Of a stretch of 64,000 nt of DNA, positions 15,723 to 49,011 are shown piece by piece. The stretch is taken from positions 10,973-74,972 of the forward strand of contig CAJFVJ010000001.1 of assembly GCA_904420445.1 (NCBI GenBank). Direction: 5' to 3'. Made by a program: the position numbers and the translations under genes. Below the pieces are notes generated by a model. The model was not told where the DNA came from and made no database searches. It saw only the letters and a program-made list of their open reading frames with translations. This DNA comes from Candidatus Adamsella avium (lineage in GTDB: Bacteria; Cyanobacteriota; Vampirovibrionia; Gastranaerophilales; CAJFVJ01). Position 1 is the stretch's first letter. Each line of letters opens with the position of its first letter.

Positions 15723-16382
15723 ATGAATATCACTTTTAACCCGCATACAACACCTGTTCTAAAACAATTGCAAACATCTCAACCAATTGAACCGCCGCTG
15801 AAATATAACAAAAATCTTGAGCATGACACTGTATCTTTCGGACAAAAAAAAGATAAAAATCCTAAAATTACGGCATCTCAAATAAAAGCAATATCAGAAA
15901 ATGCTACACCGGTAACATATATGAAACTGTTCAGAACAAAATCGGAAACAGGAGAAAATATTTTCTGGAGAATGACTCCAAAAGCCATAAAAGCAAGCGC
16001 AGACCTGCTCAAAAAAACAAAAAACGAGGATACACTCTCAAAAGCACTTTCTGCAAAAAATCCTGACGGGAAAAATATCCTGACAACAATCAAAACAGCT
16101 GACAAACTTGACGCACTGGTATATGCCCTCAAAGACGACCCCAAAACTCTTCTCGATATTCTCTCTTATCCAACACCAGAAGAAGCTACAGCAACACTCT
16201 TCAAAAATGCGCTGATAAAAGGAGAAAACGAGCACAAAATGCAAAAATCACTCAATAAGGCATGGTTCTCTGTCGCAAACGAAAATCCCGGAAAAAAAGA
16301 AGCTGTTATAACTCTCTTTAAAGCAAACGAAGAATATCTCAACAAGAAAAATAAAACTATTCTCGGAGATCTGACTCATTAA
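15723..16382 (+). CDS. hypothetical protein with a polar N-terminus and VSFG motif, no signal peptide
   Basis: 219-aa ORF with an AGAGGA RBS. N-terminus is MNITFNPHTTPVLKQLQTSQPIEPPLKYNKNLEHDTVSFGQKKDK. The rest is Lys-rich and looks helical. No Cys. Confidence 0.6.
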   Translation: MNITFNPHTTPVLKQLQTSQPIEPPLKYNKNLEHDTVSFGQKKDKNPKITASQIKAISENATPVTYMKLFRTKSETGENIFWRMTPKAIKASADLLKKTKNEDTLSKALSAKNPDGKNILTTIKTADKLDALVYALKDDPKTLLDILSYPTPEEATATLFKNALIKGENEHKMQKSLNKAWFSVANENPGKKEAVITLFKANEEYLNKKNKTILGDLTH

Positions 16383-20822: not shown

Positions 20823-21440
20823 ATGTTTAGCCCTACACTTACAAAAATGATAAACTCTTCAGGCGCACAAGCAGCCATGCAACGCAGCGCCCAAATTGAG
20901 AATTTTATTACACTCCAGACAAAAAACATCCAAACTCTCGAACCTCCGAAACCGACTCAAACAAAAAGCTTCGAAGAATACCTCGAACTCGACCCTCCGC
21001 CTGTTTTCGGAATAGATACAATCAAAAACATCAAAAAAACATCAACAGACAAGAAAACTCTCCGAGCAGAAATCAACGACATAGTCAAAAAAGCAGCCGC
21101 CACCCATGGAGTTGATGAAAAACTTATCCTCGCTGTAATTAAACAAGAATCAGGTTTTAACCCGAAAGCCGTTTCTCACTGCGGAGCAGAAGGTCTTATG
21201 CAGCTTATGCCGGGAACTGCAAAAGGGCTTGGAGTCAAAGACTCCTTCGACCCCGTACAAAATGTCATGGGAGGCACAAAATACCTCAAAAATCTCCTGA
21301 AAAAATACAACGGGAACATAATCCTCGCTCTGGCAGCCTACAACGCAGGTTCAGGCAACGTAGCAAAATACAACGGAGTTCCACCCTTCAAAGAAACTCA
21401 GAACTACGTGAAAAAAGTTCTCGCAAATTACTTGAGCTAA
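20823..21440 (+). CDS. SLT-domain lytic transglycosylase encoded inside the flagellar rod operon
   Basis: VIKQESGFNP, GLMQLMPGTAKGLG and AAYNAGSGNVAKYNGVPPFKETQNYVKKV motifs. Paralogous to 3731-4417. Confidence 0.85.
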   Translation: MFSPTLTKMINSSGAQAAMQRSAQIENFITLQTKNIQTLEPPKPTQTKSFEEYLELDPPPVFGIDTIKNIKKTSTDKKTLRAEINDIVKKAAATHGVDEKLILAVIKQESGFNPKAVSHCGAEGLMQLMPGTAKGLGVKDSFDPVQNVMGGTKYLKNLLKKYNGNIILALAAYNAGSGNVAKYNGVPPFKETQNYVKKVLANYLS

Positions 21441-23518: not shown

Positions 23519-24082
23519 ATGACAGGGGAGGGTGTTAATCCTGAAATATTTGCAAAAGATATAACCACGCAAGCCTTAGAAGTCATACCAAAAGACCTAT
23601 CTGATAAGGATGCAAAATTTGTCATAGACAAAGTCTATCACTTCTGCAAAAAAACCTCTGAAGAACTCGAAGAACAAAACTTATCAAAAGACAAAAAAAT
23701 TTTCCTCACACAACTTGTAAGCGAATGGATTTTCCACAAATCAATTGACTTATGCCGGGCTCAAATAGACCCAATCTACAAAGAAAATATACTCGAGGCT
23801 GTTTCTTATCAGGTTCTTCATACATCAAAAGAAAACCTCGCAAATAACCTTCCTCTTGAAAAAAATCTCGCTCTGACAGAAGAAAAAGTCCAGAAAATCT
23901 ATATGGAAAAACTATGCTACCTCTTCAACTCCGGCAAAATAGACGAACTAACTTACACAAACGCCCTCAATCAGTCTAATATAGATAAAATGTCCAAAGA
24001 AATTAACCTCCAAAATCAAAATAACCCTGTGAAAAACTTTCAAAAAATAATTAAAACCGTTTTCGATATACTTAAAAAATAG
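23519..24082 (+). CDS. hypothetical flagellar-operon protein (paralog A of the fliG-slot pair)
   Basis: 187 aa, colinear with the first ~180 aa of the next ORF. Examples: NPEIFAKDITTQALEVIPKDLSDKDAKFVIDKVYHF vs NPEEFSKNLTSQVVGVIPQDLSEEDKKFVVNIVYKF, EWIFHKSIDL vs EWAFHKSVDL, ALNQSNIDKM vs ALSESNIDRM. Confidence 0.65.
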   Translation: MTGEGVNPEIFAKDITTQALEVIPKDLSDKDAKFVIDKVYHFCKKTSEELEEQNLSKDKKIFLTQLVSEWIFHKSIDLCRAQIDPIYKENILEAVSYQVLHTSKENLANNLPLEKNLALTEEKVQKIYMEKLCYLFNSGKIDELTYTNALNQSNIDKMSKEINLQNQNNPVKNFQKIIKTVFDILKK

Positions 24083-24092
24083 AGAGGATACC

Positions 24093-25052
24093 ATGCCAAT
24101 AGAAGGATTTAACCCTGAAGAATTTTCCAAAAACCTGACTTCACAAGTAGTCGGGGTAATCCCTCAAGACTTATCGGAAGAAGATAAAAAATTTGTAGTA
24201 AATATCGTCTACAAATTTCTTATCATGGCGGCAGGCGCACTCAACAAAGACGATAACTCACCTCTGAACGCCCAGCAGGCATCAACAATCACTCAATTTA
24301 TAGGCGAATGGGCATTCCACAAATCAGTCGACCTCTCCCGTGCCAAAATACCTCAACCACTCAGAGAACCCGTCCTGCAAGCCGTCGCATTCTCTGTATT
24401 CGACGAAGCAAAAAAAGTCATAATAAATAATGTAGACAGAGATGAAGCTATCACAAGAATCGAAGAACGTGTTAAAGCAGCCTACCAGAGCTCTCTGCAG
24501 GGTCTTGCAAAAGAAAACAAAATAGACAAGGACTCTCTTCAGCGGGCACTCTCAGAATCAAATATCGATAGAATGGCAGAAGAAGCAAAACAACATAACT
24601 CTGAAGAAAACCAGAAACCGGTAGAAATGCCTGACCAGCTTCTCAAACTGGCTGCAATCTCTCTTGTCCTCAAAAAAATGCCCCCCAAACAAGTAGAAGT
24701 TATTCTCTCAAAAATTGATCCCCGTGATGCTACGGCAATCAACTCATATATGAAACTTGACGGACTTGAAACAAAACTTGATATGCAAAAAGCTCAAAAA
24801 TTTATAAACGAATTTATGCATAAAATGCCCAAAGAACCTCAAAAAATAAATGAAGATATAACTATATCCAAAATTAATAAACTAAAAACCTCACTTCCTC
24901 AGGGAACTCTCGAAAATATTCTGAAAAATGAGCGGGAAAATATCAAAAAAATTCTTGAAGACGAAGAAACACTCAAAGACCTCTCGCCCAAAATAATGAA
25001 TATATTGTATAATTATCTTGAGGAAAAGGCGGTTGGGTACACCAAAAGATGA
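24093..25052 (+). CDS. fliG-slot protein: paralog-B N-domain plus a FliG_N-like C-terminal module (not a full-length FliG)
   Basis: 319 aa. Residues ~185-250 (LLKLAAISLVLKKMPPKQVEVILSKIDPRDATAINSYM...KFINEFM) follow the FliG N-domain pattern KAAxLLxxLG..xxxVxxxLxxxE...EF. I see no FliG_C torque-helix region. Confidence 0.6.
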   Translation: MPIEGFNPEEFSKNLTSQVVGVIPQDLSEEDKKFVVNIVYKFLIMAAGALNKDDNSPLNAQQASTITQFIGEWAFHKSVDLSRAKIPQPLREPVLQAVAFSVFDEAKKVIINNVDRDEAITRIEERVKAAYQSSLQGLAKENKIDKDSLQRALSESNIDRMAEEAKQHNSEENQKPVEMPDQLLKLAAISLVLKKMPPKQVEVILSKIDPRDATAINSYMKLDGLETKLDMQKAQKFINEFMHKMPKEPQKINEDITISKINKLKTSLPQGTLENILKNERENIKKILEDEETLKDLSPKIMNILYNYLEEKAVGYTKR

Positions 25053-25771
25053 TAATCAAAAAAAACAAACTACAGCACAATTCACCTCAAAAAGAAGAGT
25101 CTGCAAAAGAACAACCCGTTGAAGAAATTGTTCAAGAACAAACTCCGAAAAAAAACCTGCTCGAATCAGGAATATTCTCTGATGAAGAATTCCTTGACAC
25201 CTTTCAGCAGAGGCAGGAAAGAAGACGCGGCGACAGACGCCGAGGCTACAGAAGAACAGACGATAGAAATATCATATCAAGAGCCAAAGACGAAGCCGAA
25301 AATATTAAACAACAGGCAATCAAAGACGGCTTTGCAAAAGGGCTCAATATGGCAAAAGCAAACATAGACGAACTCAAAAAAACAATTGCATCTCTGCTTG
25401 CCGTCAAAGAAAAAGCTATCGACAACTACAAAGATGACATAATAGAAATCTCCGTCAAAATAGCTGAAAAACTATTGAAAAAACAAATTGAAGAAGACGA
25501 CACCGTTATATTAAATATCTTATCGGAAGTTATCTCTGATATAGCTAAAGACGAAAAACACATTATAATAAAAATAAACCCGTCTGATGAAAAAACCGTA
25601 AAAGACAATATCGCTTCGCTTATCCCGTCTTCTTTTTCGGATACAAAAGTTACTCTTGAAAAAAATCCCAAAATCGACCGTGGAAGCTGCATAGTCGAGA
25701 CAAAAAGCGGGGTAATAGACGCCCAGTTCTCAACACAGCTGGCTATACTCAAAAAAGCACTCAACACTTAA
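25049..25771 (+). CDS. fliH: flagellar export ATPase regulator FliH
   Basis: 240 aa. A basic/acidic N-terminus, then AKDEAENIKQQAIKDGFAKG...IIEISVKIAEKLL...DRGSCIVETKSGVIDAQFSTQL. 4-nt overlap with the previous gene. Confidence 0.8.
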   Translation: MIIKKNKLQHNSPQKEESAKEQPVEEIVQEQTPKKNLLESGIFSDEEFLDTFQQRQERRRGDRRRGYRRTDDRNIISRAKDEAENIKQQAIKDGFAKGLNMAKANIDELKKTIASLLAVKEKAIDNYKDDIIEISVKIAEKLLKKQIEEDDTVILNILSEVISDIAKDEKHIIIKINPSDEKTVKDNIASLIPSSFSDTKVTLEKNPKIDRGSCIVETKSGVIDAQFSTQLAILKKALNT

Positions 25772-25799
25772 CTAAACAATCGGAGGAGTAAAATCTAAA

Positions 25800-27896
25800 T
25801 TGGCACAACAAGGACAAATGCCTGCAATACCTGTCAGTGAAATATTCTTAGCAATATTTGTAGTTTGCCTTGTCTTGATTTTGCTCGTTGAGATGCCAAA
25901 CTGGGTCATCGACGCATCAATCAGTTTGAATATTACCCTCGGCATCGTCCTGTTGATGATATCCTTGTTCGTACAAAAACCTCTCGAGCTTGCTTCATTC
26001 CCTTCAATTATTCTGCTTGGAACAATGTTTAGACTTGTTTTGAGTATCGCATCAACAAGACTTATCCTCGCAAAAGGCGAAGCAGGCGAAGCAATCGAAG
26101 CATTCGGACACTTCGTAACAGGCGGAAATATGATTGTCGGCGGTGTTATCTTCCTCATCATCACAATCGTTCAGTTTATGGTTATCACAAAAGGTTCTGA
26201 ACGTATCGCCGAAGTTTCAGCAAGATTTGCCCTCGACGCCATGCCAGGTAAACAAATGGTTATCGACGCAGACTTTAACGCAGGACTTATCTCTCCTGAA
26301 GAAGCCGTAAGACGAAGAGAAAGCCTCCAAAGAGAATCAGCTCTCTTCGGTTCCATGGATGGTGCCATGAAGTTCGTAAAAGGAGATACCATAGCGGGTA
26401 TTATCATCGTAATCATCAACATCGTAGGCGGTCTTGCCATCGGGATGGGGATGAACGGACTCCCCCTTGAGGAAGCCGTATCAAAATATACAATCCTAAC
26501 AATAGGTGACGGTCTTGCCTCACAGCTCCCTTCACTGCTGATGGCGGTATCAAGCGGTATCGTTATGACCCGTGCAACAGCAGACAGCACCAGCTTGGGT
26601 AAAGACCTTGCAGGACAACTCATGAGCAAACCGTTCGGTCTGTTCTATGCTTCTGCATTCCTTTTGCTAATTGTCTTAACAAGCCCGATAACAGGTCTGC
26701 CGGGATGGTTCTTCGCTCTGTTTACAATCATAACAGCTCTTGCAGGCTTCTCCGTTCTCGTATCACAGGACGTTCAACAACAACTCGGACACCTCGAGAG
26801 TGTTAAACAAAACATGCAGGATATGGTCAACCCTAACAGAATGTATGAAAGACTCGGAGTTGATATCCTCAGCCTGCAGGTAGGAAGCGGGCTGTTAAGC
26901 ATCGCTGACCCTGAACAGGAAGGCGACCTCCTCGCAAAAATTGCCGCTCTAAGACAAAGAGTAACGGATGAACTCGGTTATATCATCCCGAACATAAGAA
27001 TTATGGACAGTACAGCCCTCGACCCGAACGAATATCTTATAGCTATCAGAGGCAACAACGTCGCAACAGGAAAGGTTTATCCGGGTAAATTGATGGTAAT
27101 AGCAGACCAGTGGCGTGCTTCAAGAGTACCTATTCCGCCATCCGCTGTCGAAAGTCTTGACCCGACATATCAGGCTCAGGCAATCTGGGTTTTGCCGAAA
27201 GAAATTCCGCCGTCAAAAGGAATTAACGGTGTCACTGCAACGGATGTAATCATCACACACCTGCAAGAGTGCTGCCGTAAGTATGTAGATGAAGTAATGA
27301 CAAAAACAGATGTCCTCAAACTTATGGAACTCGTTAAGAGCCAAGACCCGACTCTTGTCAACGACCTCGTTCCCGCTATCATCTCTACAAGCGATTTGAG
27401 AAAAATCTTCGTCAACCTCATCAGAGAAAAAGTTTCTATCAAAGATATCATCTTCATATTCGAAAGACTCTGCGACTACGCAAGATTTTCAAAAGAACCG
27501 GATATCCTCTCGGAAAGACTCCGTGCCGCACTCGGACGTCAAATATGTTTATCAAACTGCGAAGGCAAAACGCTCTATGCACTCACTCTTACTTCAGAGT
27601 GGGAGAAAACTCTCGACGACTCTTGCCAGAGAACAGAACTCGGAACTATGTTCCTTCTCAACCCGATGCAGGTTCAGGAACTCATCGAAGTTACTGCCTC
27701 AACCCTCATGAGAGCACACCATGTCATCGGAAGACAGCCTGTTATATTATGTTCTCCGAGAATTCGTCTTCCGCTTTATCAGCTGCTTGAAAGACATATT
27801 CCGACCATCGTCGTTATATCTTACAGCGAGCTGATTACTGATATAAGAGTCGAAGCAATTGATACAATCGGTCAAAACAGCGGGATAGGAGTGTAA
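25800..27896 (+). CDS. flhA: flagellar export gate protein FlhA
   Basis: 698 aa with a TTG start after GGAGG. FHIPEP motifs present: MPGKQMVIDAD, FGSMDGAMKFVKGD. Multiple TM segments plus a C-terminal cytoplasmic domain. Confidence 0.95.
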   Translation: MAQQGQMPAIPVSEIFLAIFVVCLVLILLVEMPNWVIDASISLNITLGIVLLMISLFVQKPLELASFPSIILLGTMFRLVLSIASTRLILAKGEAGEAIEAFGHFVTGGNMIVGGVIFLIITIVQFMVITKGSERIAEVSARFALDAMPGKQMVIDADFNAGLISPEEAVRRRESLQRESALFGSMDGAMKFVKGDTIAGIIIVIINIVGGLAIGMGMNGLPLEEAVSKYTILTIGDGLASQLPSLLMAVSSGIVMTRATADSTSLGKDLAGQLMSKPFGLFYASAFLLLIVLTSPITGLPGWFFALFTIITALAGFSVLVSQDVQQQLGHLESVKQNMQDMVNPNRMYERLGVDILSLQVGSGLLSIADPEQEGDLLAKIAALRQRVTDELGYIIPNIRIMDSTALDPNEYLIAIRGNNVATGKVYPGKLMVIADQWRASRVPIPPSAVESLDPTYQAQAIWVLPKEIPPSKGINGVTATDVIITHLQECCRKYVDEVMTKTDVLKLMELVKSQDPTLVNDLVPAIISTSDLRKIFVNLIREKVSIKDIIFIFERLCDYARFSKEPDILSERLRAALGRQICLSNCEGKTLYALTLTSEWEKTLDDSCQRTELGTMFLLNPMQVQELIEVTASTLMRAHHVIGRQPVILCSPRIRLPLYQLLERHIPTIVVISYSELITDIRVEAIDTIGQNSGIGV

Positions 27897-27903
27897 GTGC
27901 CAC

Positions 27904-29238
27904 ATGAGCAAAAGCGTCGAAGAAATTAAAAAACGTGCACTTGAAATAATTGATAAAACTCCCCTTTATATCTATAAAGGGAGCGTATCAAAAGTTCTCG
28001 GACTTACGGTAGAAGTCAAACTCCCCGGGCTTAAAATCGGTGACCTGTGCTATATAGAAACAGCAAGTGGCGATAAAAAAGCAGCCGAAGTAGTTGCATT
28101 CAAAGGAGATGTCGCACAGCTCCTGTTGTTGTACGACGGTGCAGGCATCGGACAGGGAAATCTTGTCACCTCAACAGGAAAATCCATTTACATCCCTGTA
28201 GGGGACTTTCTCTTAGGTCGTCTTATAAACCCTCTCGGCGCACCTATCGACGGAAAAAAATTGGATACGACAACAGCAAAATGGGTGCCCATAGAAGGGC
28301 CTCCCCCTGACCCGTTTGAAAGACCGATTATCAGCGAAAAATTTTCAACAGGGGTAAGAGCAATCGATGCCCTGCTGACATTTGGCTGCGGACAACGTAT
28401 GGGGCTTTTTGCAGGAAGCGGCGTCGGTAAAAGTACACTGCTCGGGATGATAGCAAGAAACTCTGATGCTGATGTAAACGTTATGGCTCTGATAGGAGAA
28501 CGTGGAAGAGAAGTTAAAGAATTTGTCGAAAACAGCCTGGGACCACAGGGTATGGCAAAATCAGTCATCGTCTGTGCAACAGGCGACCAGCCTCCGCTTA
28601 TCAGAATGAAGGCGCTTCAGTCTGCGACAGCTGTCTGCGAATACTTTAGAGATCAAGGGAAAAAAGTGTTCCTCATGACGGATACCGTCACAAGATGCGC
28701 AATTGCGGGAAGAGAGGTAGGCTTATCAATCGGAGAACCTCCAACCATGAAAGGTTATCCGCCGTCTATTTTCTCATGGCTTCAAAGAGTGCTTGAAAGA
28801 ACAGGTACAAGCCAAAAGGGGTCTATTACCGCATTTTATACGGTATTGATGGAAGGCGATGACATAAACGACCCCGTTGTTGATACGGTAAGAGGTATCG
28901 TAGACGGGCACGTGTTCTTATCAAGAAAAGTCGCCGAGCAGAACCATTACCCAGCCATAGATGTTCTCGGTAGCATAAGCAGGTTATTCACTGAAATCTG
29001 CGACGCCGAACATCAAAAGGCAGCTGCAAAGATGCGAACGCTTCTTGCTTTATATCGAGAAAACAAAGACCTGATTGATGTAGGGATGTATCAGGCAGGT
29101 GCAAACCCGAAACTTGATATAGCAATCGAACTTATGCCTCAAATAAACGGTTTCTTGTGTCAATCCGTCAAAGACAGTGTCAATATGAAAAATACAATAG
29201 ACACCCTGAAGCAAATGATGGCGAATGTCGATATCTGA
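27904..29238 (+). CDS. fliI: flagellum-specific ATPase FliI
   Basis: 444 aa with Walker A GSGVGKST and Walker B VFLMTDTVTR, F1-ATPase-like. Confidence 0.95.
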   Translation: MSKSVEEIKKRALEIIDKTPLYIYKGSVSKVLGLTVEVKLPGLKIGDLCYIETASGDKKAAEVVAFKGDVAQLLLLYDGAGIGQGNLVTSTGKSIYIPVGDFLLGRLINPLGAPIDGKKLDTTTAKWVPIEGPPPDPFERPIISEKFSTGVRAIDALLTFGCGQRMGLFAGSGVGKSTLLGMIARNSDADVNVMALIGERGREVKEFVENSLGPQGMAKSVIVCATGDQPPLIRMKALQSATAVCEYFRDQGKKVFLMTDTVTRCAIAGREVGLSIGEPPTMKGYPPSIFSWLQRVLERTGTSQKGSITAFYTVLMEGDDINDPVVDTVRGIVDGHVFLSRKVAEQNHYPAIDVLGSISRLFTEICDAEHQKAAAKMRTLLALYRENKDLIDVGMYQAGANPKLDIAIELMPQINGFLCQSVKDSVNMKNTIDTLKQMMANVDI

Positions 29239-36836: not shown

Positions 36837-38228
36837 TTATTTCAAAACAATTCCAATCTCAAATGTCCTGTTCCACGGAAAATAAAAAGCCGTATCAGGT
36901 TCTCTCATCCCGAGATAATGCGCAATCTTTGAAATATAAGGTTTGAACAACTCTGAACACGAACGACTATCTCCTTTTCGCAGCATCTGCCTTATATTTG
37001 CCTGATAAGCCCAATCATCAGCCAATCTCACAAACATAAGCTCTTTGAATTTTTTCTCATCAAAATAACCTTTTCCCTGTGCAATAAATTTTAGTACAGC
37101 AACAGACATCAATGAGCCCGTTGCATTTGCTGTTGTATTCCATCCTGAATACCCGAAAAAATGTTTCATATCAGCAGGTTCATCAACTACGCATTCTGAT
37201 ACAAATTCATCATCAGCACCGTTTGCATACCTTACATCAGCTATCGCATAATTCTTTGATTTATCAAATTTGAATATATGAGAGAAATTCTCATCTTCAA
37301 AAATACCAAGAGCAAGGTCATCCTGTATTTTCAAGGGAGCGTTCACAACAAGAGAAATATCTCCTTCTTCCTTTTCTGATGAACCAATCATTCTGAGATA
37401 AGAACAAAAAGTTTCTTTGATGCTCACACCGTCATATCTTGTGATAACCGAGCCGGCATAAGGATGATTATAAACAGTATTGAAAGAAACCTTCTGCTGG
37501 TGAAAATCAGAATATGCCCTTGCAATCAATCCGCTCCAAATTTCATCAGCTCCCGATAAAACCATCGCATCAGAATGTTCTTCAAGGATTAATCTCTGCA
37601 ATTCTTCTCCTTCTTTGACATTCAGACCGTATTTTGATGTGTCATCCCTTGAGAAAACAAGAAAGTCAAAACCAGATGAAAGATAGTGCTTGTTTATGGA
37701 AAAATTGCGTTTTCTTGTATTGAGATAATCTTTTAATATATCTTCTGGGATAGAGTGCTCCGGTTCCGTTCCGTTTTTATGAAAATTGTATGAATAATCA
37801 AAAATCTGTTTTCCATACTTATTCCAGTATTCTTTTTCTTCTTCGTTGATGTTGTTGTTTGAAATTCTCATAATGCTTGAAAAAGCATAAATTTTTGAAC
37901 ATTTTTCTCTCAGCAGCGAAAGAAACTCATCAACCCCTTTGAGAATTTCCTCCTCAGAAGTTTCAACCCTTCTCGATGCGATAAGTCCGCCGTAAGCTAT
38001 CGTATCGAGGCAGCAGATTGCATAATCAATTTGTACATCAAGATTTTTCACCCATCTCAAAATAGAATTGACATCGGCATAAGAGGTGAGCGACCCCATA
38101 ATTTCTCTTGGGGGGATAAAAAGATTTATATCGCCTGCTGTCAAACACATCTCAACGGCAAAATCATAACAAACAGGACGATTGTCAATAGGAATAAGCA
38201 GGATATTTATTTTTTTCTGGCTGTTCAT
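36837..38228 (-). CDS. DUF4127 family protein
   Basis: 463 aa. The N-terminus (INILLIPIDNRPVCYDF) resembles the DUF4127 opening. Assigned from memory only. Confidence 0.6.
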   Translation of the reverse strand: MNSQKKINILLIPIDNRPVCYDFAVEMCLTAGDINLFIPPREIMGSLTSYADVNSILRWVKNLDVQIDYAICCLDTIAYGGLIASRRVETSEEEILKGVDEFLSLLREKCSKIYAFSSIMRISNNNINEEEKEYWNKYGKQIFDYSYNFHKNGTEPEHSIPEDILKDYLNTRKRNFSINKHYLSSGFDFLVFSRDDTSKYGLNVKEGEELQRLILEEHSDAMVLSGADEIWSGLIARAYSDFHQQKVSFNTVYNHPYAGSVITRYDGVSIKETFCSYLRMIGSSEKEEGDISLVVNAPLKIQDDLALGIFEDENFSHIFKFDKSKNYAIADVRYANGADDEFVSECVVDEPADMKHFFGYSGWNTTANATGSLMSVAVLKFIAQGKGYFDEKKFKELMFVRLADDWAYQANIRQMLRKGDSRSCSELFKPYISKIAHYLGMREPDTAFYFPWNRTFEIGIVLK

Positions 38229-38355: not shown

Positions 38356-39747
38356 TTATCTTCCAAGCTGTACAATTCGCTGAAGAACCTGGTTTACCGT
38401 ATCGAATGTACGGCTGTTTGCTTCAATGCTTCTTTGAGCAATAATCATTTCTGCAAATTGTGTTGATAAATCAACGTTTGATGATTCCAAACCGGCATTG
38501 CCTACCGTACCAAGACCATTCGAACCGCCGCAGGAGAAAGACAGTTCGCCTGCATTCAGACCGACTTCATACAAGTTGCCACCGACAGAAGTCAAACCCT
38601 GCTCATTGATAACAGTAGCAAGCTGCAATTGAAGGTTGCCCGCTTCTATTACATTTTCATTTACTTGAATTTTATTTGCGGCAATATCTACACCTTCTGC
38701 TGTTTTATAAAGCAAAGAAATTGTTGTCCCGTCATTTTGTACGGTCAAACTATCACCGTTTGAATATTTTGCAACTATAGACCCATCACCGTTTACACTC
38801 ATTGAAACAAATGTCGATGGAGAATCTGTTTCTGTTCCTGGGCCGACTGTTGCATTATAATCAAGAATATTACTTGTATATGTAACATTGGCGTCACCTT
38901 CTCCCATTTGAGTAGAAAGTCCTATTTCAGAAAAGAAGTCACTTCCTTCGCCGCCTTCTACAGAACCCATAGAGTCAATAGACACAGGAGTTGAAGCAGC
39001 TGTTGTATCAACAACCATCTGAATTGTTCCGGCATTCTCACCTGTTCCAAAGACCATCTGAACACCCTTATCGCCTAAAGCTCCTTCTAAAGCGGTATTT
39101 ATTTTGTTTGCTATATCATTCAAAGAAGAAGCGCCCGAGATATCAACTTCTACATTCTTAACTCCGTTATCACCGCAGTTTACTGAAATTGCGACTTTAC
39201 CTTCTTTATAGTTAAAATTATTCAAAGAATTGATATCCATGCCTGCTATATTTTCATTACCGGTGGTAAACATATTCAATGTAGGAGGAATTTTGATAGG
39301 AGTAGTGCTTGGATTTTTGCTGAAAGGAGAAGACATCCCGAGAACTCTGAAACCTTCCTGTGTGACAAGGCATCCTTCAGCATCTCTTGTAAAATCACCG
39401 GCTCTTGAAAGCATTACCTGATTGTTTTCATCCAAGACAGTAAAAAATCCGTTACCTTCAAAATAAAGGTTTGTATCAATACCTGTTGACTGGAAAGTAC
39501 CATCGCTGAAGTTTCTTGTAATCGATGCGAGTTTTGTACCGAAACCTACCTGCATCGGGTTTGTTCCGCCTATATTTTCAAGCGGGGAACTTCCGTTTGA
39601 AATTGTTCTTGAAAACACATTCTGAAAAGTTACATTTGACTGTTTAAATGCAACCGTATTCATATTTGCGATGTTGTCAGCTATAACATTAATTTTGTCC
39701 TGCGCTGTGTTCATTCCGCTTATGGATGTGTAAAACCCCTGTGTCAT
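38356..39747 (-). CDS. flgE: flagellar hook protein FlgE
   Basis: 463 aa with an N-terminal SGMNTAQDKINVIADNIANMNTVAFK and a C-terminal GLESSNVDLSTQFAEMIIAQRSIEANSR. Confidence 0.92.
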   Translation of the reverse strand: MTQGFYTSISGMNTAQDKINVIADNIANMNTVAFKQSNVTFQNVFSRTISNGSSPLENIGGTNPMQVGFGTKLASITRNFSDGTFQSTGIDTNLYFEGNGFFTVLDENNQVMLSRAGDFTRDAEGCLVTQEGFRVLGMSSPFSKNPSTTPIKIPPTLNMFTTGNENIAGMDINSLNNFNYKEGKVAISVNCGDNGVKNVEVDISGASSLNDIANKINTALEGALGDKGVQMVFGTGENAGTIQMVVDTTAASTPVSIDSMGSVEGGEGSDFFSEIGLSTQMGEGDANVTYTSNILDYNATVGPGTETDSPSTFVSMSVNGDGSIVAKYSNGDSLTVQNDGTTISLLYKTAEGVDIAANKIQVNENVIEAGNLQLQLATVINEQGLTSVGGNLYEVGLNAGELSFSCGGSNGLGTVGNAGLESSNVDLSTQFAEMIIAQRSIEANSRTFDTVNQVLQRIVQLGR

Positions 39748-39824: not shown

Positions 39825-40352
39825 CTAAACTTTTTCTGTATTTTCCTTATTATCTGCATCAGCTACAGACTCTGTGCCGTCACCGCCGGCAGAATTATCA
39901 GTTCCTGTATCTGCCCCGGGTTCTTTGATAGATTCTATCAATCCAAGCGGATAATTTTTACCGTTAATAGTAATACCTGCTTCCTGTCCTGTATAGATAG
40001 CTCCTTCAACTATACCCGTAATTCTCTGTGATGTATTATTAGGGTCAATCAGTGTAACTTCTTTGCCAATCAAAGAACTTGCCTGAAGCAGTGAATTTGA
40101 TGCAGTCAGCGTTTCATTCAGTTTCTGAAGCTCGGTAACCTGTGTAAACTGTGCCTGTTGAGCAATAAACTCCTGATTATCAGTAGGATTCATCGGATCC
40201 TGATTCTGCAGCTGTACCATCAAAAGCTGCAAAAAAGCATTCTGGTCAAGCTCGGTGCGCCCGACATTATTTTTCGCATTCTCGGCATTAACCTTTGCCG
40301 TGTTGTTTTTAATATTTGTCAGTGTATTTTCTATACTTGATGATGACTGCAT
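39825..40352 (-). CDS. flgD: flagellar hook capping/assembly protein FlgD
   Basis: LDQNAFLQLLMVQLQNQDPMNP motif. Confidence 0.88.
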   Translation of the reverse strand: MQSSSSIENTLTNIKNNTAKVNAENAKNNVGRTELDQNAFLQLLMVQLQNQDPMNPTDNQEFIAQQAQFTQVTELQKLNETLTASNSLLQASSLIGKEVTLIDPNNTSQRITGIVEGAIYTGQEAGITINGKNYPLGLIESIKEPGADTGTDNSAGGDGTESVADADNKENTEKV

Positions 40353-40376: not shown

Positions 40377-41966
40377 CTAAATTGTATAATCTACCAGTCC
40401 GTTGTGAACACTCTTTGTTGATTTTGTGTCATGGTGTTCTTCCTGCAGCAAATCATGTTCATAATTTGACTGCGCTTCATGTTCAGAGTTTCTGCTCTGG
40501 GATCCTGTTTTATTGTTATCGCCAAAGTCAAACCCCTGCATATTTTCATGCGGAAAATCTTTTGAAAAATTGTTATTCGACAGAGTTGATTCCTGTGATT
40601 TTACAATCACATTGCCCACTGTTATTCCCTGCTCCTGCAAAGATTGTTTCAAAGAATCAATATTTCTTGTCAAAAGTTCTTTTGTCTGGTCATTTTCAGT
40701 TCTTATCTCAGCAGACAAAATTCCGTTTTGCGACACAAGGTCTATGTTCAATCTGCCAAGGCTCTGAGGATTCAAAATCATTGATATTGAATTTTTGCCG
40801 TTGATTGATGTCATGTTGTGTTTCATGTTGTTTACAACCTGATTGAGGACATCAACATCGGCATTATGCTGTTGTTCCATCGAACTCAAAAGTCTGTTAA
40901 ATTCCGTATTGTGCACCCCGTCTGATTTTGCTGCGGAGCTGCTGTTTGAGAAAAGCGAATTCAGCGAATTAAGAGGGGAGTCCATCCCTTCATGCGACTC
41001 ATTATGTTGATTCATGAAAGAACTCTCGCCGTTGTTCGAAGCATCAATCTCTTTGACCGAAGCTCTTGCCGCTAGTTCACCCAGCTGACCTTTCAAAGAT
41101 TTTGATGTATCCTGTTTGGAAGTTTTTACATCTTCAACATTCAAATCAGCAAAAGTTTCAGCTAACTCATCAGCAGGAGTTTTCAGAAGTTCATTTTTCT
41201 GTAAAGCTGCTTCTTTTACCGGTTGGACTTCTGTCTGCTCCTGTTTTGTTTGTTTTGCGATATTTTGCATTTCCGCTTGCTTTTGAGTTTTATCAGAAAT
41301 ACTCTTGACCAGATTTTCAAGTTTTTCTTTCAACGAATTTACGCTGTCTGTTTTTTGAGTTCTGCCATGCAGCTCGCTTAATCTGTTTGATAAATCTGTT
41401 TGAAGCTGTGATTTATCCACGACTTTTTTTTGAGAAACGTCTGTTTGAACATCAGCCTGCTCAAGAATTTTTTGAAGTTTTGATTTTTGTTTTACGGCAT
41501 CAGAGTGAGAAAGGTGTTTATCACCGAGAATTTGCGAGATATCTTTTGAGGAGTAAGCAAGCTGCTCTACTCTATCTCTAAAGTTTATATGTTCGGATGC
41601 CGGAGATACAACATCTCTTGAAGATTGTCTTCTGATGTCATGGTGATGTTCTTTAGAAAAAATTTCACGTCTGTCAGTAAATTTGCTTCTGTCTTTTTCT
41701 TTTGTTGTATTAAGCTCATCTGATTTTTCAGTTATATCATTCTTTGTATTGCCGCCGTCAAAAGACTCATCTTTATAAACATAATCATTTGATGAAGAAG
41801 AGTTTGTTTTGGGTTCATAGTTCACCTGTTGTGTCAGAACGCTTGAGAACTGATTTGTAATATTTTCATAATCATCATAGCTGAAATTCTTTGATGAATT
41901 ATCTTCTTGAGAGCTGAATGCTTTAAAGCTTAAATCTAAAATATTGCTTTCGCTTAATACGCTCAT
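40377..41966 (-). CDS. fliK: flagellar hook-length control protein FliK
   Basis: 529 aa with a polar, disordered-looking N-terminal region. The C-terminal Flg_hook pattern is ISMILNPQSLGRLNIDLVSQNGILSAEIRTENDQTKELL. Confidence 0.8.
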   Translation of the reverse strand: MSVLSESNILDLSFKAFSSQEDNSSKNFSYDDYENITNQFSSVLTQQVNYEPKTNSSSSNDYVYKDESFDGGNTKNDITEKSDELNTTKEKDRSKFTDRREIFSKEHHHDIRRQSSRDVVSPASEHINFRDRVEQLAYSSKDISQILGDKHLSHSDAVKQKSKLQKILEQADVQTDVSQKKVVDKSQLQTDLSNRLSELHGRTQKTDSVNSLKEKLENLVKSISDKTQKQAEMQNIAKQTKQEQTEVQPVKEAALQKNELLKTPADELAETFADLNVEDVKTSKQDTSKSLKGQLGELAARASVKEIDASNNGESSFMNQHNESHEGMDSPLNSLNSLFSNSSSAAKSDGVHNTEFNRLLSSMEQQHNADVDVLNQVVNNMKHNMTSINGKNSISMILNPQSLGRLNIDLVSQNGILSAEIRTENDQTKELLTRNIDSLKQSLQEQGITVGNVIVKSQESTLSNNNFSKDFPHENMQGFDFGDNNKTGSQSRNSEHEAQSNYEHDLLQEEHHDTKSTKSVHNGLVDYTI

Positions 41967-42419
41967 CTAAACCCCCGATCCTCTATACCTTGTAAGTGCT
42001 ATATCGTCCAATTCCTTTGCTTCTCTTTGCTCAAAATCTTTCAAAAAAGCCTTATATTCCTTTTCTTTCAATTTTTCAAGCATTTTTTTTGCCTTGAGAG
42101 CCTCTCTGACTTCCTCCTGCTTCAGCTCAAGCTCATTTTCTATATCGGCAATCACTTTATGCTGGATAGATATATCATCATCAAGTTTTGCTATATAATC
42201 CTGATAGTTCTTAACCCTGATAAATTCTATATTTTCTCCTGCACCAAGTATATTTTCCAAATCTCTTTTTGCTTGCAACCTGCTTTGCTCCAAAGAATCA
42301 AGCTTGTTGTTCGCATCATTCAATCTGGCCTGGATAGCAGCCATCTCAAGCTGCCTGTCTTCAAGAGTTTTTGTTCTGAGTTCCAAAACGTTTTCTAATC
42401 GAAATTTAAACTTTTTCAC
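41967..42419 (-). CDS. fliJ: flagellar export protein FliJ
   Basis: 150-aa coiled coil, MKKFKFRLENVLELR...KMLEKLKEKEYKAFLKDFEQREAKELDDIA. Abuts fliK. Confidence 0.75.
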   Translation of the reverse strand: MKKFKFRLENVLELRTKTLEDRQLEMAAIQARLNDANNKLDSLEQSRLQAKRDLENILGAGENIEFIRVKNYQDYIAKLDDDISIQHKVIADIENELELKQEEVREALKAKKMLEKLKEKEYKAFLKDFEQREAKELDDIALTRYRGSGV

Positions 42420-42565: not shown

Positions 42566-44047
42566 TTAAATATCAACTTCACCGACATTCTCAAGGACAA
42601 ACTCTGATGTAATCTCTTCTTTTGCTATTACGGAGAGATTTGGTCTTATTTGTTCAAAAATCTGGAATATAAAATGCCTCAGCTCGAGAGGAACAACAAG
42701 AACGATAAACTCCGAGTTAATATCCGAATTCTCGATAACTTTATTCAAATTTTTCGCCACTTTCTGGATAAAATTTCCGCTGATAGTAAGAGTTTTCTTT
42801 TGAGTACACAAATATTTCGTCAGTTTATCGGTAATTTTCTCACAGAGGGTAACACCATAGATTATATGATTTTCATCTGATACACTCTGGCAAATCTGTC
42901 TTGAGAGAGAAATTCTCAGTTTTTCTAGCAAATCATCTTTGATTGCATCAACAGAAAAGTCATTTATCTTCTCAAAAATATAAACAACATCCCGAACAGG
43001 GACTTTTTCTCTTATGAGCGAAGCAAGAATATACCTCAGCTCGCCGACGGAGAGAAAATCGGGCATAATATTCTCAATAAGATAAAGATTTTCAGAGCCT
43101 GCTATTTCAACAAATCTGTTCACATCGCTGTAGTCAAATATCTCATCAACATAGCGGCAGACTATATATTCAAGATTTTTTGCAATCACCTCAGCGGCAG
43201 ACAAGCCTTTTTCCCAGAATTTTTTTGTTTTTGAGTTGTCTATCCACAGAATTTCCCGACCGCTGACAAAGTCAAAGCCTTCTATGGTTGAAGCAGGCTT
43301 ACGGCTCAGAGATATTTCATCCTTATAAAACATTGAATAATCCGGGTAAACATTCGATTTGAGAACTTCTATATCTCTGATTAGAATTTTATACTCGCAA
43401 GATTCAAGCGTATCATCAGGTTTGAAATAAACTCCCGGGATAACATACCCGAGTTTTTGAGTCAAATCCTGACGCAATTTGACACTCAAAGATACAAGTT
43501 CCGCTCCGTTATCAGGGTTGACCATATCAAGAAGTTCATCGCTTAATTTGATTGTTATTTTGTTGACGCCTATTTCTTCATAAAATTTTTGAGGAGAGAT
43601 TGTTTCTGCAAGTTTGTTTCTCAACACTTCGAGGTCTTTCATGGCTGCTGACATCTCAGAGTTCAGGGCAATACGGTCATCTTCATCAATTGCTGTTGAG
43701 TCAAGGCATGCCTTAATTTCTTTTATGCGGAGGCGGCGTTCTTTAATTTTTTCCTGAACCTCTTTGCACTCGATATAGGGGTTCTTCTCAAAAATTTTCT
43801 CCATTTTCGAGCGAAAATCATCAACATCAACTATTTCATCATCTTTTTCATCAGAGTCAGAGTCTTCTTCCTTATCACGATAAAAAATACAGTTGTAGAC
43901 AACATCACCGTTTCTGCCGTCAGCCTCATGAAGAGTATAGAGTTCCCATCCTTTTTCGGACATCGAGTTCAAGAGTTCTTCCAGAAACTCGGGTTCATCA
44001 GTCGGACATGTTTTCACAGCATATTCATTTTTTGAACTCTTAAACAT
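42566..44047 (-). CDS. soluble FlhA cytoplasmic-domain (FlhA_C) paralog with a DUF4177-like N-terminal domain
   Basis: 493 aa with no TM segments. The C-terminal ~320 aa are colinear with FlhA residues ~380-690 in this window (see findings). The N-terminus includes EKGWELYTLHEADG. Confidence 0.8.
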   Translation of the reverse strand: MFKSSKNEYAVKTCPTDEPEFLEELLNSMSEKGWELYTLHEADGRNGDVVYNCIFYRDKEEDSDSDEKDDEIVDVDDFRSKMEKIFEKNPYIECKEVQEKIKERRLRIKEIKACLDSTAIDEDDRIALNSEMSAAMKDLEVLRNKLAETISPQKFYEEIGVNKITIKLSDELLDMVNPDNGAELVSLSVKLRQDLTQKLGYVIPGVYFKPDDTLESCEYKILIRDIEVLKSNVYPDYSMFYKDEISLSRKPASTIEGFDFVSGREILWIDNSKTKKFWEKGLSAAEVIAKNLEYIVCRYVDEIFDYSDVNRFVEIAGSENLYLIENIMPDFLSVGELRYILASLIREKVPVRDVVYIFEKINDFSVDAIKDDLLEKLRISLSRQICQSVSDENHIIYGVTLCEKITDKLTKYLCTQKKTLTISGNFIQKVAKNLNKVIENSDINSEFIVLVVPLELRHFIFQIFEQIRPNLSVIAKEEITSEFVLENVGEVDI

Positions 44048-44071
44048 AAACTCACTCCAGAAATGTCATAC

Positions 44072-44107
44072 AAAAAGCCCTTAAGTATATTGTAATACGT
44101 AAGGGCT
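44072..44107 (-). terminator. terminator after rplT
   Basis: agccctta / taagggct arms. A T5 run follows on the minus strand. Confidence 0.6.
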
Positions 44108-44133
44108 GTTCTTGAAAAGATTTTTATTTTTTC

Positions 44134-44487
44134 TTATGCGGATGCTTTAGCTGCTTCAACAATTTTGCCGAAAGCTGAGAAATCTCTCACTGCAACATCA
44201 GCCAGCATTTTGCGATTGATAACAATTTGAGCTTTCTTCAAAGCATTCACAAGCTTGCTGTAGTTCATGCCATGCATTCTTGCAGCAGCGTTGATTCTAA
44301 CAATCCACAGACGACGCATATTTCTTTTTTTGGTGCGTCTATCTCTGTATTGATAGCACAAAGCTTTCATAACAGCGATGTTTGCTACTTTGAATATTCT
44401 GCTTCTTGCACCTTTGAAGCTTTTAGCCAATTTTAAGATTTTTTTATGTCTGTTGCGGAGGACGTTTCCGCGTTTTACTCTTGCCAT
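44134..44487 (-). CDS. rplT: 50S ribosomal protein L20
   Basis: [29 protein letters not shown]... Confidence 0.95.
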
Positions 44488-47704: not shown

Positions 47705-47770
47705 AAATCCTGTCATTCCGATTTTTTCTTGTCTTCTCGCAGGTTCTCACAATTCCGATTTTTTACGCTT
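47705..47770 (+). repeat. duplicate of the tRNA-Pro(CGG) 3' end plus its 49-bp downstream flank
   Basis: aaatcctgtcattccgattttttcttgtcttctcgcaggttctcacaattccgattttttacgctt matches 47514-47579 with 3 mismatches. Confidence 0.85.
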
Positions 47771-48457
47771 ATTCATATGCTTCCACAATTCAATACGTCT
47801 TAGTTCTTGTTGATATCCTAAATAGTCCCCTACATTAATCTTATCGGCTTGTTCAAAAGTTTCCCTGTGATATTTCGGATTAAAGCCCAAAATTTTCCTG
47901 AAATAATCTATTGCCTCTCTGGCTCCCAAAACAACATTACTCCAGGGGTCTGTTACAACAGCTTCATTTCCCCAGGTTTTCGGGTTTGCTATATCTGCCT
48001 CCCTGCTTAATCCGCTGACAACAAATGAATGATTTCCATAAATCTTATCTTTCTTTGTATAAAAAGTCATACACACATTGTGAGCTTCCTCTCCGTTTTT
48101 CAAAAAAACATCCTGCATAAGAAAAGCCTGTTCTCCGCAATTTGCCGCATTTTCAGATAAAACAGCTCTCTTCAAATCATCAATAAAACTATCCCAAGAG
48201 TCATAATTTCCGCCATATTTCTTGCGGACATTGTCTATTTCTTCATTGTATCTGTCTGCAAGAGATTGGAGATTTTTATTAATTGGCTTAAAAGCCCTAT
48301 CACCGTTATGTCTGATGATAAATGATTTAACCATAGTATTTGAATGAAAATACTGGGGATAATTTTTTCTATACTCTTTCATCATCTTTTCGCCCAAACG
48401 CTTTTGAGCTTTCAAACTTCCGAAAGAAATGTTCGTATCAGAAAGATTTACTGCCAT
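47747..48457 (-). CDS. hypothetical protein with an ISFG N-terminal motif and a possible Cys-His-Asp (papain/transglutaminase-like) triad
   Basis: Start chosen at the ATG at 48457 (GAGAGGA RBS): MAVNLSDTNISFGSLKAQKR. Candidate triad motifs are NCGEQA, 36 aa later GNHSFVV, then VVTDPW. The 3' end lies inside the duplicated segment. Confidence 0.55.
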   Translation of the reverse strand: MAVNLSDTNISFGSLKAQKRLGEKMMKEYRKNYPQYFHSNTMVKSFIIRHNGDRAFKPINKNLQSLADRYNEEIDNVRKKYGGNYDSWDSFIDDLKRAVLSENAANCGEQAFLMQDVFLKNGEEAHNVCMTFYTKKDKIYGNHSFVVSGLSREADIANPKTWGNEAVVTDPWSNVVLGAREAIDYFRKILGFNPKYHRETFEQADKINVGDYLGYQQELRRIELWKHMNKRKKSEL

Positions 48458-48537
48458 CAAAATATCCTCTCTACAGATATAAAACATAACATAAAAAATT
48501 TTTGCTAAAATAAATATGAGAAAATTCGGAGGTAATA

Positions 48538-49011
48538 ATGAAATATATTTCCCGCTGCCAAACACCAATAGGCGAACTTACCATTGTAGAAGAAAATTCA
48601 AAAATCACAAATATTATCTTTGAAAACTCGGGAAAAAACTTCGACAAAAAAAACTGTATTCAAAAAGAAACTCCGCTTCTGCAAAAAACCTGCAGCCAGC
48701 TAGCGGAATATTTTGCAAAAAAAAGAACCTGCTTCTCTATCCCGCTTGCACCAAACGGCACGGAATTTTTGCAAAAAGTCTGGAGAACGCTCGAAACAAT
48801 CCCATATGGTGAAACAAAAAGCTACAAAGAAATTGCAGAACAAATAAACCATCCGAAAGCTTACCGTGCTGTCGGACTGGCAAACAACAAAAATCCTATT
48901 CCGATAATCATTCCCTGCCACAGAGTAATCTCTTCGAACGGAGCGCTCACAGGATATGCAGGCGGACTGGATATCAAATCTTTTCTTCTTGAACTTGAAC
49001 AACAGATATAA
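48538..49011 (+). CDS. ogt: methylated-DNA-protein-cysteine methyltransferase
   Basis: IPYGETKSYKEIA and the IPCHRVI active site. Confidence 0.9.
   Translation: MKYISRCQTPIGELTIVEENSKITNIIFENSGKNFDKKNCIQKETPLLQKTCSQLAEYFAKKRTCFSIPLAPNGTEFLQKVWRTLETIPYGETKSYKEIAEQINHPKAYRAVGLANNKNPIPIIIPCHRVISSNGALTGYAGGLDIKSFLLELEQQI

Follow-up and report, generated by a model that had tools for sequence, protein, structure and literature searches.

To our knowledge, the cytoplasmic domain of FlhA (FlhA_C) serves in every studied flagellum and injectisome as a docking and switching platform, and it occurs there only as part of the membrane gate. The closest precedent for a separately encoded gate domain is FlhX, which is comparable in concept only: it is a stand-alone homologue of FlhB's C-terminal cytoplasmic domain (FlhB_C; H. 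pylori HP1575, P. putida PP_4329) and partly replaces FlhB function in H. pylori. A stretch of 64,000 nucleotides (nt) from Candidatus Adamsella avium (contig CAJFVJ010000001.1), hereafter the window, was analyzed here, and the open reading frame (ORF) at 42566-44047 on its minus strand, with an ATG start and 493 amino acid residues (aa), was found to encode a membrane-less paralog of FlhA_C. The Gastranaerophilales, to which this organism belongs, are uncultured and common in non-industrialised human guts. A literature search on stand-alone or soluble FlhA paralogs, and on the flagella of Melainabacteria and Gastranaerophilales, found no description of such a protein, in agreement with the first-pass annotation of this DNA, and NCBIfam holds no dedicated model for it.

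The identity of the protein as a membrane-less FlhA_C paralog is secure. In a Kyte-Doolittle scan of the paralog with 19-residue windows, no window reached 1.6 (maximum 1.52), and the same scan of the genuine FlhA of the window gave a maximum of 3.11 with many segments over the threshold. Only the cytoplasmic half of the Pfam FHIPEP profile (PF00771), positions 321-655 of 657, matched the paralog, over aa 145-482 (E 4.3e-52). By BLASTP, ORF residues 136-488 were colinear with residues 329-687 of the window FlhA (28% identity, E 2e-44), and all five segment pairs quoted in the first-pass annotation were present. The score against the FlhA equivalog model TIGR01398 was 156.6 bits, below the cut-off of 772.1, and the best sequence match in the Protein Data Bank (PDB) was B. 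subtilis FlhA_C (3mix, E 1e-42). An AlphaFold2 model was built on 22 family members, with a mean predicted local distance difference test score (pLDDT) of 78.9. When the body of this model was searched with Foldseek, Salmonella FlhA_C was matched best (6ch1/6ch2; E 4e-24, template modelling score 0.83-0.85, ~336-339 columns). FlhA_C of H. pylori and B. subtilis came next, together with SctV_C structures of injectisomes. The absence of a transmembrane segment and the colinearity with FlhA, both read from the letters by the first-pass annotation, were therefore borne out, as were the Pfam and Foldseek checks that it had proposed. It had also considered a membrane domain encoded in frame upstream; this is excluded, as 5' extension of the ORF is blocked by the rplT stop codon, a terminator-like hairpin and stop codons upstream of the ATG. 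Every orthologue in the family alignment begins at the same M-[FY]-K motif.

The FlhA_C-type body is preceded by an N-terminal head, an acidic tether, a helical hairpin and a segment resembling the FlhA linker (Table 1). The acidic linker and following coiled coil noted earlier were recovered in the AlphaFold model as this tether and hairpin; the tether varies in sequence and length across the family alignment, and for the hairpin, the one coiled-coil family matched in Pfam was CCDC-167, weakly (E 0.005). Given its low pLDDT, the linker-like segment is probably flexible.

The N-terminal head had been read as a DUF4177-type domain, and this reading was upheld by an indirect route. The Pfam DUF4177 hidden Markov model (HMM; PF13783) had no match in aa 1-150 of the paralog, even at E <= 10. 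An N-domain profile was then searched against 1.84 billion representatives, and 98 proteins were found. The strong matches all belonged to this paralog family, either at full length (~476-507 aa) or as shorter proteins (35-391 aa) that start at the family N-terminus and are probably truncated gene calls; no other full-length architecture carrying this N-domain variant was found in the library-wide search. Small proteins made up the lower-scoring tail (library-wide E 1e-5 to 1e-3); nine of ten tested matched Pfam DUF4177, eight of them above the gathering score. When the N-domain set was aligned to the DUF4177 set with hhalign, a probability of 99.4% was obtained (E 3.4e-21, 57 columns), a somewhat circular comparison given that the DUF4177 set was drawn from the N-domain's own matches. 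The signature E-Y...LE..LN.MG..GWEL....CIF.R is common to both. A separate model of the N-domain (pLDDT 82.6) showed a beta-alpha-beta-beta fold at pLDDT ~90, for which Foldseek found nothing significant in the PDB (best E 0.049, among generic small alpha/beta folds). Taken together, these results indirectly support the head as a divergent member of DUF4177. In NCBIfam, aa 8-50 (44047-43898) also matched NF053529 ('Sp36 family protein') weakly, at E 3.8e-4 and with 20.3 bits where the cut-off is 50; the Sp36 family may be another DUF4177-like family.

Based on a mapping to Salmonella numbering, functional residues were compared between seven true FlhA_C sequences and 22 paralogs. P457, F/Y459, T490, H491 and G368 are kept in all seven true FlhA_C, and all five are replaced in the paralogs: position 457 is variable, 459 is T (12), S (7), N (2) or L (1), 490 is R (10), K (6), Q (3), N (2) or S (1), 491 is mostly N or L, and 368 is S in 22/22, with the GYXLI motif reading S-[ED]-E-[LI]-[LI]. 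The equivalent of D456 (D259) is invariant (22/22), and W465 (W268), R391, G399, P403 and the D3 helix L-I-R-E-K-V-x-x-x-D are also retained. Mutants of FlhA_C at D456, F459 and T490 are taken here to be defective in chaperone binding. Of these three residues D456 alone is kept; the check on the chaperone-binding dimple proposed by the first-pass annotation turned out negative for positions 457, 459, 490 and 491. According to the PDB titles 6ai1, 6ai2 and 6ai3, FlhA_C mutants at the same three positions have been crystallised. At the cleft, a paralog-specific conserved pattern was found (D-x-I-[TS]-G...W-I-x-x-x-K-T-K-x-[FY]-W-x-x-G-L).

The subdomains differ in how closely they follow the lineage's own FlhA, with identities of 36% for D3, 33% for D1, 24% for the linker, 20% for D4 and 19% for D2 (14-19% against true FlhA). 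When distant true FlhAs are compared with one another, D2 (41%) matches D1 and D3 in conservation, and within the paralog family its identity is 48%. Since D2 has diverged from true FlhA and is nevertheless conserved within the family, the comparison suggests re-specification, and not relaxation, of D2 together with the D1-D2 cleft. Only the paralogs and the lineage's own FlhA have the linker motif (S/N)-P-x-x-M/F-Y-E in common, with P152/F155/Y156/E157 of the paralog equivalent to P345/M348/Y349/E350. In true FlhA the D1 and D3 surfaces build the nonameric ring, and residues of the FlhA linker (FlhA_L) have a role in remodelling this ring. Paralog positions 152/155/157 (P152/F155/E157) align to E351/W354/D356 of Salmonella FlhA_L, for which contacts with the neighbouring subunit during ring remodelling are reported in PMC5916509 and PMC8166844. 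The chaperone-pocket and GYXLI signature has thus been replaced in the paralogs, while the linker motif, D1 and D3 are better kept.

When 5.8 billion proteins were searched with the paralog, 563 matches were obtained. The best 120 of these 563 were all 484-508 aa long, with query coverage of 96-100% and identity from 100% down to 41%, and the named members among them were Gastranaerophilales or Melainabacteria; family members are automatically annotated as 'FHIPEP family type III secretion protein' or 'FlhA'. In a scan with one genome per GTDB species, the paralog was present in 468 species-level genomes (full-length orthologues of ~485-508 aa). Intactness, synteny and promoters were compared in 80 listed loci of these 468, all named as, or resembling, Gastranaerophilales. 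The gene is intact in 80/80 loci (484-544 aa). Between the window paralog and its closest relative (L001, 97% identical), the ratio of nonsynonymous to synonymous substitution rates (dN/dS) was 0.036 at a dS of 0.53, and many positions of both the N-domain and the FlhA_C body are invariant in the family alignment. The pattern of substitution indicates that the paralog is under strong purifying selection; the pseudogene reading is excluded by the conservation data, and the gene is not the decaying duplicate that the first-pass annotation had allowed for. The titles of some contigs (L003, L008-L010, L014, L019, L023, L033, L057, L058, L068 and L078) name Gammaproteobacteria, Muribaculaceae, Clostridium, Clostridia or a Methanobacteriaceae archaeon; with their Gastranaerophilales-type gene, these are probably mislabelled or mis-binned metagenome-assembled genomes.

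A tree was computed from PDB FlhA_C sequences, reconstructed from printed alignments, together with three Gastranaerophilales FlhA. The paralogs are 27-28% identical to Gastranaerophilales FlhA_C and 18-22% identical to the B. subtilis, H. pylori, Salmonella and 12dv FlhA_C. The paralog clade came out as sister to Gastranaerophilales FlhA_C by neighbour joining, a placement that is indicative rather than proven, this being a distance tree with long branches. The genuine FlhA lineage is the probable source of the paralog: the 3' half of flhA was probably duplicated within the Gastranaerophilales lineage and then diverged fast, and the duplicate probably gained the N-terminal DUF4177 domain, the acidic tether and the helical hairpin. 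The genuine FlhA is at least 80% identical over its 120 best matches, with 82% for Candidatus Spyradomonas excrementavium, whose paralog (L059) shares 42% identity with the window paralog, so the paralog evolves much faster than FlhA.

Table 1. Positions of the paralog gene, its predicted parts, nearby signals and related flagellar genes in the window.
Feature	Coordinates	Strand	Details
Soluble FlhA_C paralog, whole gene	42566..44047	-	Stop codon 42566-42568; ORF list, FHIPEP C-terminal half, no transmembrane segment
N-terminal beta-alpha-beta-beta domain, divergent DUF4177 (indirect support)	43874..44029	-	aa 7-58; pLDDT ~90; 14 residues invariant in family
Acidic, predicted-disordered tether, KEEDSDSDEKDDEIVDVDD...	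43784..43873	-	aa 59-88; pLDDT 30-37 over aa 61-88
Helical hairpin / coiled coil	43601..43783	-	aa 89-149; helices 90-115 and 122-149; pLDDT ~80 (AlphaFold)
FlhA-linker-like segment	43562..43600	-	aa 150-162; motif S-P-x-x-F/M-Y-E; aligns to window FlhA 343-355
FlhA_C-type four-subdomain body	42569..43561	-	aa 163-493; Foldseek, 3mix match
Shine-Dalgarno GGAG	44055..44058	-	7 nt 5' of ATG; read directly from the sequence
rplT terminator-like hairpin	44076..44107	-	8+4 bp stem, then TTTTG
Weak sigma-70-like match, TTTTCA-18-TACAAT	44089..44118	-	9/12 matches; -10 in rplT hairpin loop
fliJ	41967..42419	-	146 nt downstream of paralog; Pfam FliJ E 2e-17
fliK	40377-41966	-	Pfam Flg_hook (FliK) E 2e-18
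flgD	39825-40352	-	Pfam FlgD E 9e-21
flgE	38356-39747	-	FlgE-type domains (Pfam)
Genuine full-length FlhA, 698 aa	25800..27896	+	Between fliH and fliI; FHIPEP E 4e-211, profile positions 2-656

In the window, the paralog lies between infC-rpmI-rplT upstream and fliJ-fliK-flgD-flgE downstream. The position next to fliJ, which the first-pass annotation had stressed, was confirmed for this genome in gap length and in the Pfam assignment of all four flagellar genes, and did not hold as a general linkage. In a synteny survey of the 80 loci, which covered up to 6 kb on each side and combined a tblastn screen with clustering, the paralog-fliJ-fliK-flgD-flgE arrangement was found only in L001, which is effectively the same species. 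L002, L003, L004 and L030 share only the upstream rplT with the window locus. No flagellar neighbour was found in the remaining 75 loci, whose identifiable neighbours are housekeeping genes; a conserved fliJ or flagellar context had been anticipated, and the opposite was found. Upstream and on the same strand, a 178-aa protein without assignment (cluster C2) was found in 25/80 loci, a PSP1/RicT-type protein in 23/80 and BamA-Skp-pyrimidine nucleoside phosphorylase in 9/80, and ClpP, AspRS, Ffh, RlmH and similar genes lie nearby in various loci. The gene 3' of the paralog is often on the opposite strand in the relatives. The recurrent neighbours C2, C51, C6, C7 and C20 were checked as hidden flagellar genes, but none matched Pfam or had a homologue in the window. 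Of the upstream neighbours on the same strand, C2 occurs most often (for example in L011, L018, L022, L028, L041-L044 and L046-L050), at a gap of 44-131 nt (overlapping calls in L064), and its product could be a functional partner of the paralog. A DUF4127 protein (36837-38228, minus strand, E 1e-101) follows flgE on the same strand in the window and in L001.

The rplT hairpin ends 28 nt before the paralog ATG, close to the ~25 nt given earlier. Folding of 44040-44140 gave a minimum free energy of -20.7 kcal/mol (z -2.24) and confirmed the hairpin, which a simple terminator scan did not pick up, probably owing to the mismatch within its stem. Expression by read-through from rplT or from a promoter embedded in the hairpin had been suggested. 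The first does not hold in general, since many orthologues have an extended -10 motif of their own; for the second, a weak promoter-like match was found. Its TACAAT -10-like hexamer (44089-44094, minus strand) lies in the hairpin loop, and the sequence is identical in L001. As sigma-70-like matches over the whole region were fewer than in shuffled sequence, the match may serve as a lead only and is statistically not separable from chance. Loci with the PSP1 arrangement mostly show a gap of 12-50 nt, and no extended -10 motif was seen in them, which suggests that paralogs in this arrangement are co-transcribed with the upstream gene. Judged from these upstream regions, expression in the relatives appears to proceed from sigma-70-type extended -10 promoters or from upstream housekeeping operons.

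We tentatively favor, at rather less than an even chance, a role for the paralog as a soluble accessory of flagellar type III export, with a re-specified site for its ligand, that either copies the FlhA_C ring or docks on it. The mechanism as a whole, unlike the identity of the protein, is one that we infer. The retained FlhA-type linker and the D1 and D3 surfaces would be used for assembly or docking, so that the paralog would either build a ring of its own or join the FlhA_C ring that lies under the type III export gate of the flagellum, docking onto it or into it. The rebuilt D1-D2 cleft, together with the tethered DUF4177 head, would bind a lineage-specific partner and not the canonical FliS, FliT or FlgN chaperone complexes, and the paralog would assist export as an accessory factor for docking, sorting or gating. 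Its place at the head of the fliJ-fliK-flgD-flgE unit in this species would fit a role in hook-stage export, a linkage that is not general. The genuine FlhA of the window is intact and retains the canonical docking residues, so the paralog does not compensate for a degenerate gate. A bolder form of this proposal, which we consider unlikely, is that a second soluble FlhA_C-type ring, or a mixed ring of FlhA and paralog, exists in Gastranaerophilales export machines, with the rebuilt cleft and the DUF4177 head selecting lineage-specific cargo. If so, the paralog would be an export-gate component not recognised before, and it might also work in the reduced, filament-less 'flagellar' secretion apparatus reportedly retained by most of the order.

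Several observations weigh against an export accessory. In 79/80 related loci, neither the tblastn screen nor the clustering revealed a flagellar neighbour. The extended -10 motif TGnTAnnAT was found within 90 nt upstream in 36/80 loci, and in 23 of the 25 that follow C2 (background 6.7% per scanned window), and a sigma-28-like motif was found upstream of the orthologues in 0/80 loci. Since D1 and D3 rank highest in conservation among the subdomains in any case, the fact that they are retained speaks only weakly for ring formation. Complete flagellar gene sets were reported in 3/9 Gastranaerophilales genomes (PMC4040986) and in ~25% of genomes of the order (bioRxiv 10.64898/2026.04.24.720558). 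With complete flagella so few and the paralog in 468 species genomes, it may persist where flagella are incomplete.

Most of these observations suit the strongest rival, in which the duplicated FlhA_C fold was co-opted as a scaffold outside flagellar export and the adjacency to fliJ is an accident of rearrangement. We regard this as somewhat unlikely, and as the alternative that survives best. It would account for the 75/80 loci in which no flagellar neighbour was found and in which PSP1/RicT, ClpP, BamA-Skp-pyrimidine nucleoside phosphorylase, AspRS, Ffh and RlmH appear instead; for promoter motifs that are of housekeeping type and never sigma-28-like; for the loss of canonical docking residues; for the much faster evolution of the paralog than of FlhA (42% against 82% in Spyradomonas excrementavium); and for its wide occurrence in an order where most genomes reportedly have no complete flagellum. 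However, the lineage-specific linker motif of FlhA and the ring subdomains have been retained, and no conserved neighbour points to another partner or pathway. In addition, flhB, fliI and other core export genes are reportedly retained in genomes without full flagella (bioRxiv 10.64898/2026.04.24.720558), so an export-linked role could persist there.

A soluble docking platform might also act as a decoy or buffer: by titrating chaperone-substrate complexes or FliJ off the gate, it would delay or tune the switching of export. An FlhA_C fold with the D456 equivalent invariant in 22/22, a retained linker (in Salmonella, the FlhA linker has been reported as a FliJ-binding region) and a gene directly upstream of fliJ in this species all agree with such a function. 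A decoy for canonical chaperones should, however, keep the pocket, and P457, F/Y459, T490 and H491, present in 7/7 true FlhA_C, are replaced in the 22 paralogs, so that such a decoy is improbable; the linkage to fliJ is not conserved either. The earlier suggestion of a decoy, or of a docking ring for chaperone-substrate complexes, is weakened accordingly. Slightly more doubtful again is an assembly factor, that is, a transient template or chaperone for oligomerisation of the FlhA_C ring or for FlhA insertion, acting outside the finished machine. The retained linker and D1/D3 features would be in keeping with it, and constitutive-type expression signals would suit an early role, but a distinct ligand is suggested by how strongly D2 and the DUF4177 head are conserved in a family-specific way, and we know of no such assembly factor for FlhA in the studied systems. 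A non-functional remnant of a partial flhA duplication, as a partial copy that diverges quickly might appear to be, has practically no chance of being correct against 80/80 intact loci, a dN/dS of 0.036, invariant residues in both domains and 468 species genomes.

The main flagellar cluster of the window sits on the strand opposite to the paralog, in the order flgF/G-like, flgG-like, flgB, flgC, SLT-domain protein, fliE, fliF, two ORFs without family matches, fliH, flhA and fliI. The position of flhA (TTG start at 25800) between fliH and fliI (25049-29238, plus strand) is an unusual gene order, and fliJ-fliK-flgD-flgE are separated onto the other strand, ~13 kb from fliH-flhA-fliI. Two flhA genes were reported for ACD20, one of them in the fliH-flhA-fliI order as in the window (Di Rienzi et al., 2013); its other flhA probably corresponds to this paralog. 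A search of the supplementary files of that paper found no flhA text. In the interval between fliF and fliH, where fliG would be expected, a 187-aa ORF (23519-24082, plus strand) has no family match and a 319-aa ORF (24093-25052, plus strand) has only a faint FliG_C match (E 0.17); neither ORF matched NCBIfam, and they may represent a FliG that has diverged very far or else a replacement specific to the lineage. The 205-aa protein at 20823-21440 (plus strand), between flgC and fliE in the rod-gene cluster, has an SLT lytic-transglycosylase domain as its sole Pfam match and may be a stand-alone FlgJ-like peptidoglycan hydrolase. A motif (V/I)(S/N)FG was seen within the N-terminal 50 residues of several otherwise unrelated proteins (15723-16382, plus strand; 47747-48568, minus strand; cluster C25 of the loci). 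The motif is not systematic (23/869 ORFs) and may reflect chance or a lineage-specific signal; a faint (V/I)SFG form in some neighbouring proteins was likewise not systematic.

For specialists in flagella and type III secretion, the paralog family would offer a natural experiment on which surfaces of FlhA_C serve ring formation and which serve cargo selection. It bears on whether export-gate domains can act in trans, as FlhX does for FlhB, and on how flagellar systems have diverged in non-photosynthetic cyanobacteria of the gut, which mostly have incomplete flagellar gene sets. It is also an annotation trap, since paralogs automatically named 'FHIPEP' or 'FlhA' can be counted as a second flhA.

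Compared with the small DUF4177 (PF13783) proteins, the N-terminal 60 aa of the paralog are alike in signature and in the predicted beta-alpha-beta-beta fold; the head differs in being too divergent for the Pfam HMM and in being fused to an FlhA_C body. FlhX resembles the paralog as a separately encoded, soluble cytoplasmic domain of a gate protein that coexists with the full-length gate protein, and it often adjoins a fliK-type gene, as fliK lies two genes downstream of the paralog in the window. FlhX is, however, derived from FlhB, small and free of added domains, whereas the paralog is homologous to FlhA_C and not to FlhB_C; FlhX also has experimental support, and the paralog is known here from sequence and a structural model. 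Unlike FlhA and SctV, the paralog has no transmembrane domain and no FHIPEP loop, and carries a DUF4177 head, an acidic tether and a helical hairpin instead; unlike FlhA, it has P457, F459, T490, H491 and G368 of GYXLI replaced and appears to lie outside flagellar loci in most relatives. With the cytoplasmic domain of FlhA/SctV (FHIPEP), for example Salmonella 3a5i and 6ch1 or B. subtilis 3mix, it shares the same four-subdomain fold, and like FlhA_C it keeps D456, W465 and the D3 helix LIREKVxxxD, together with a linker motif as in the FlhA of its own lineage.

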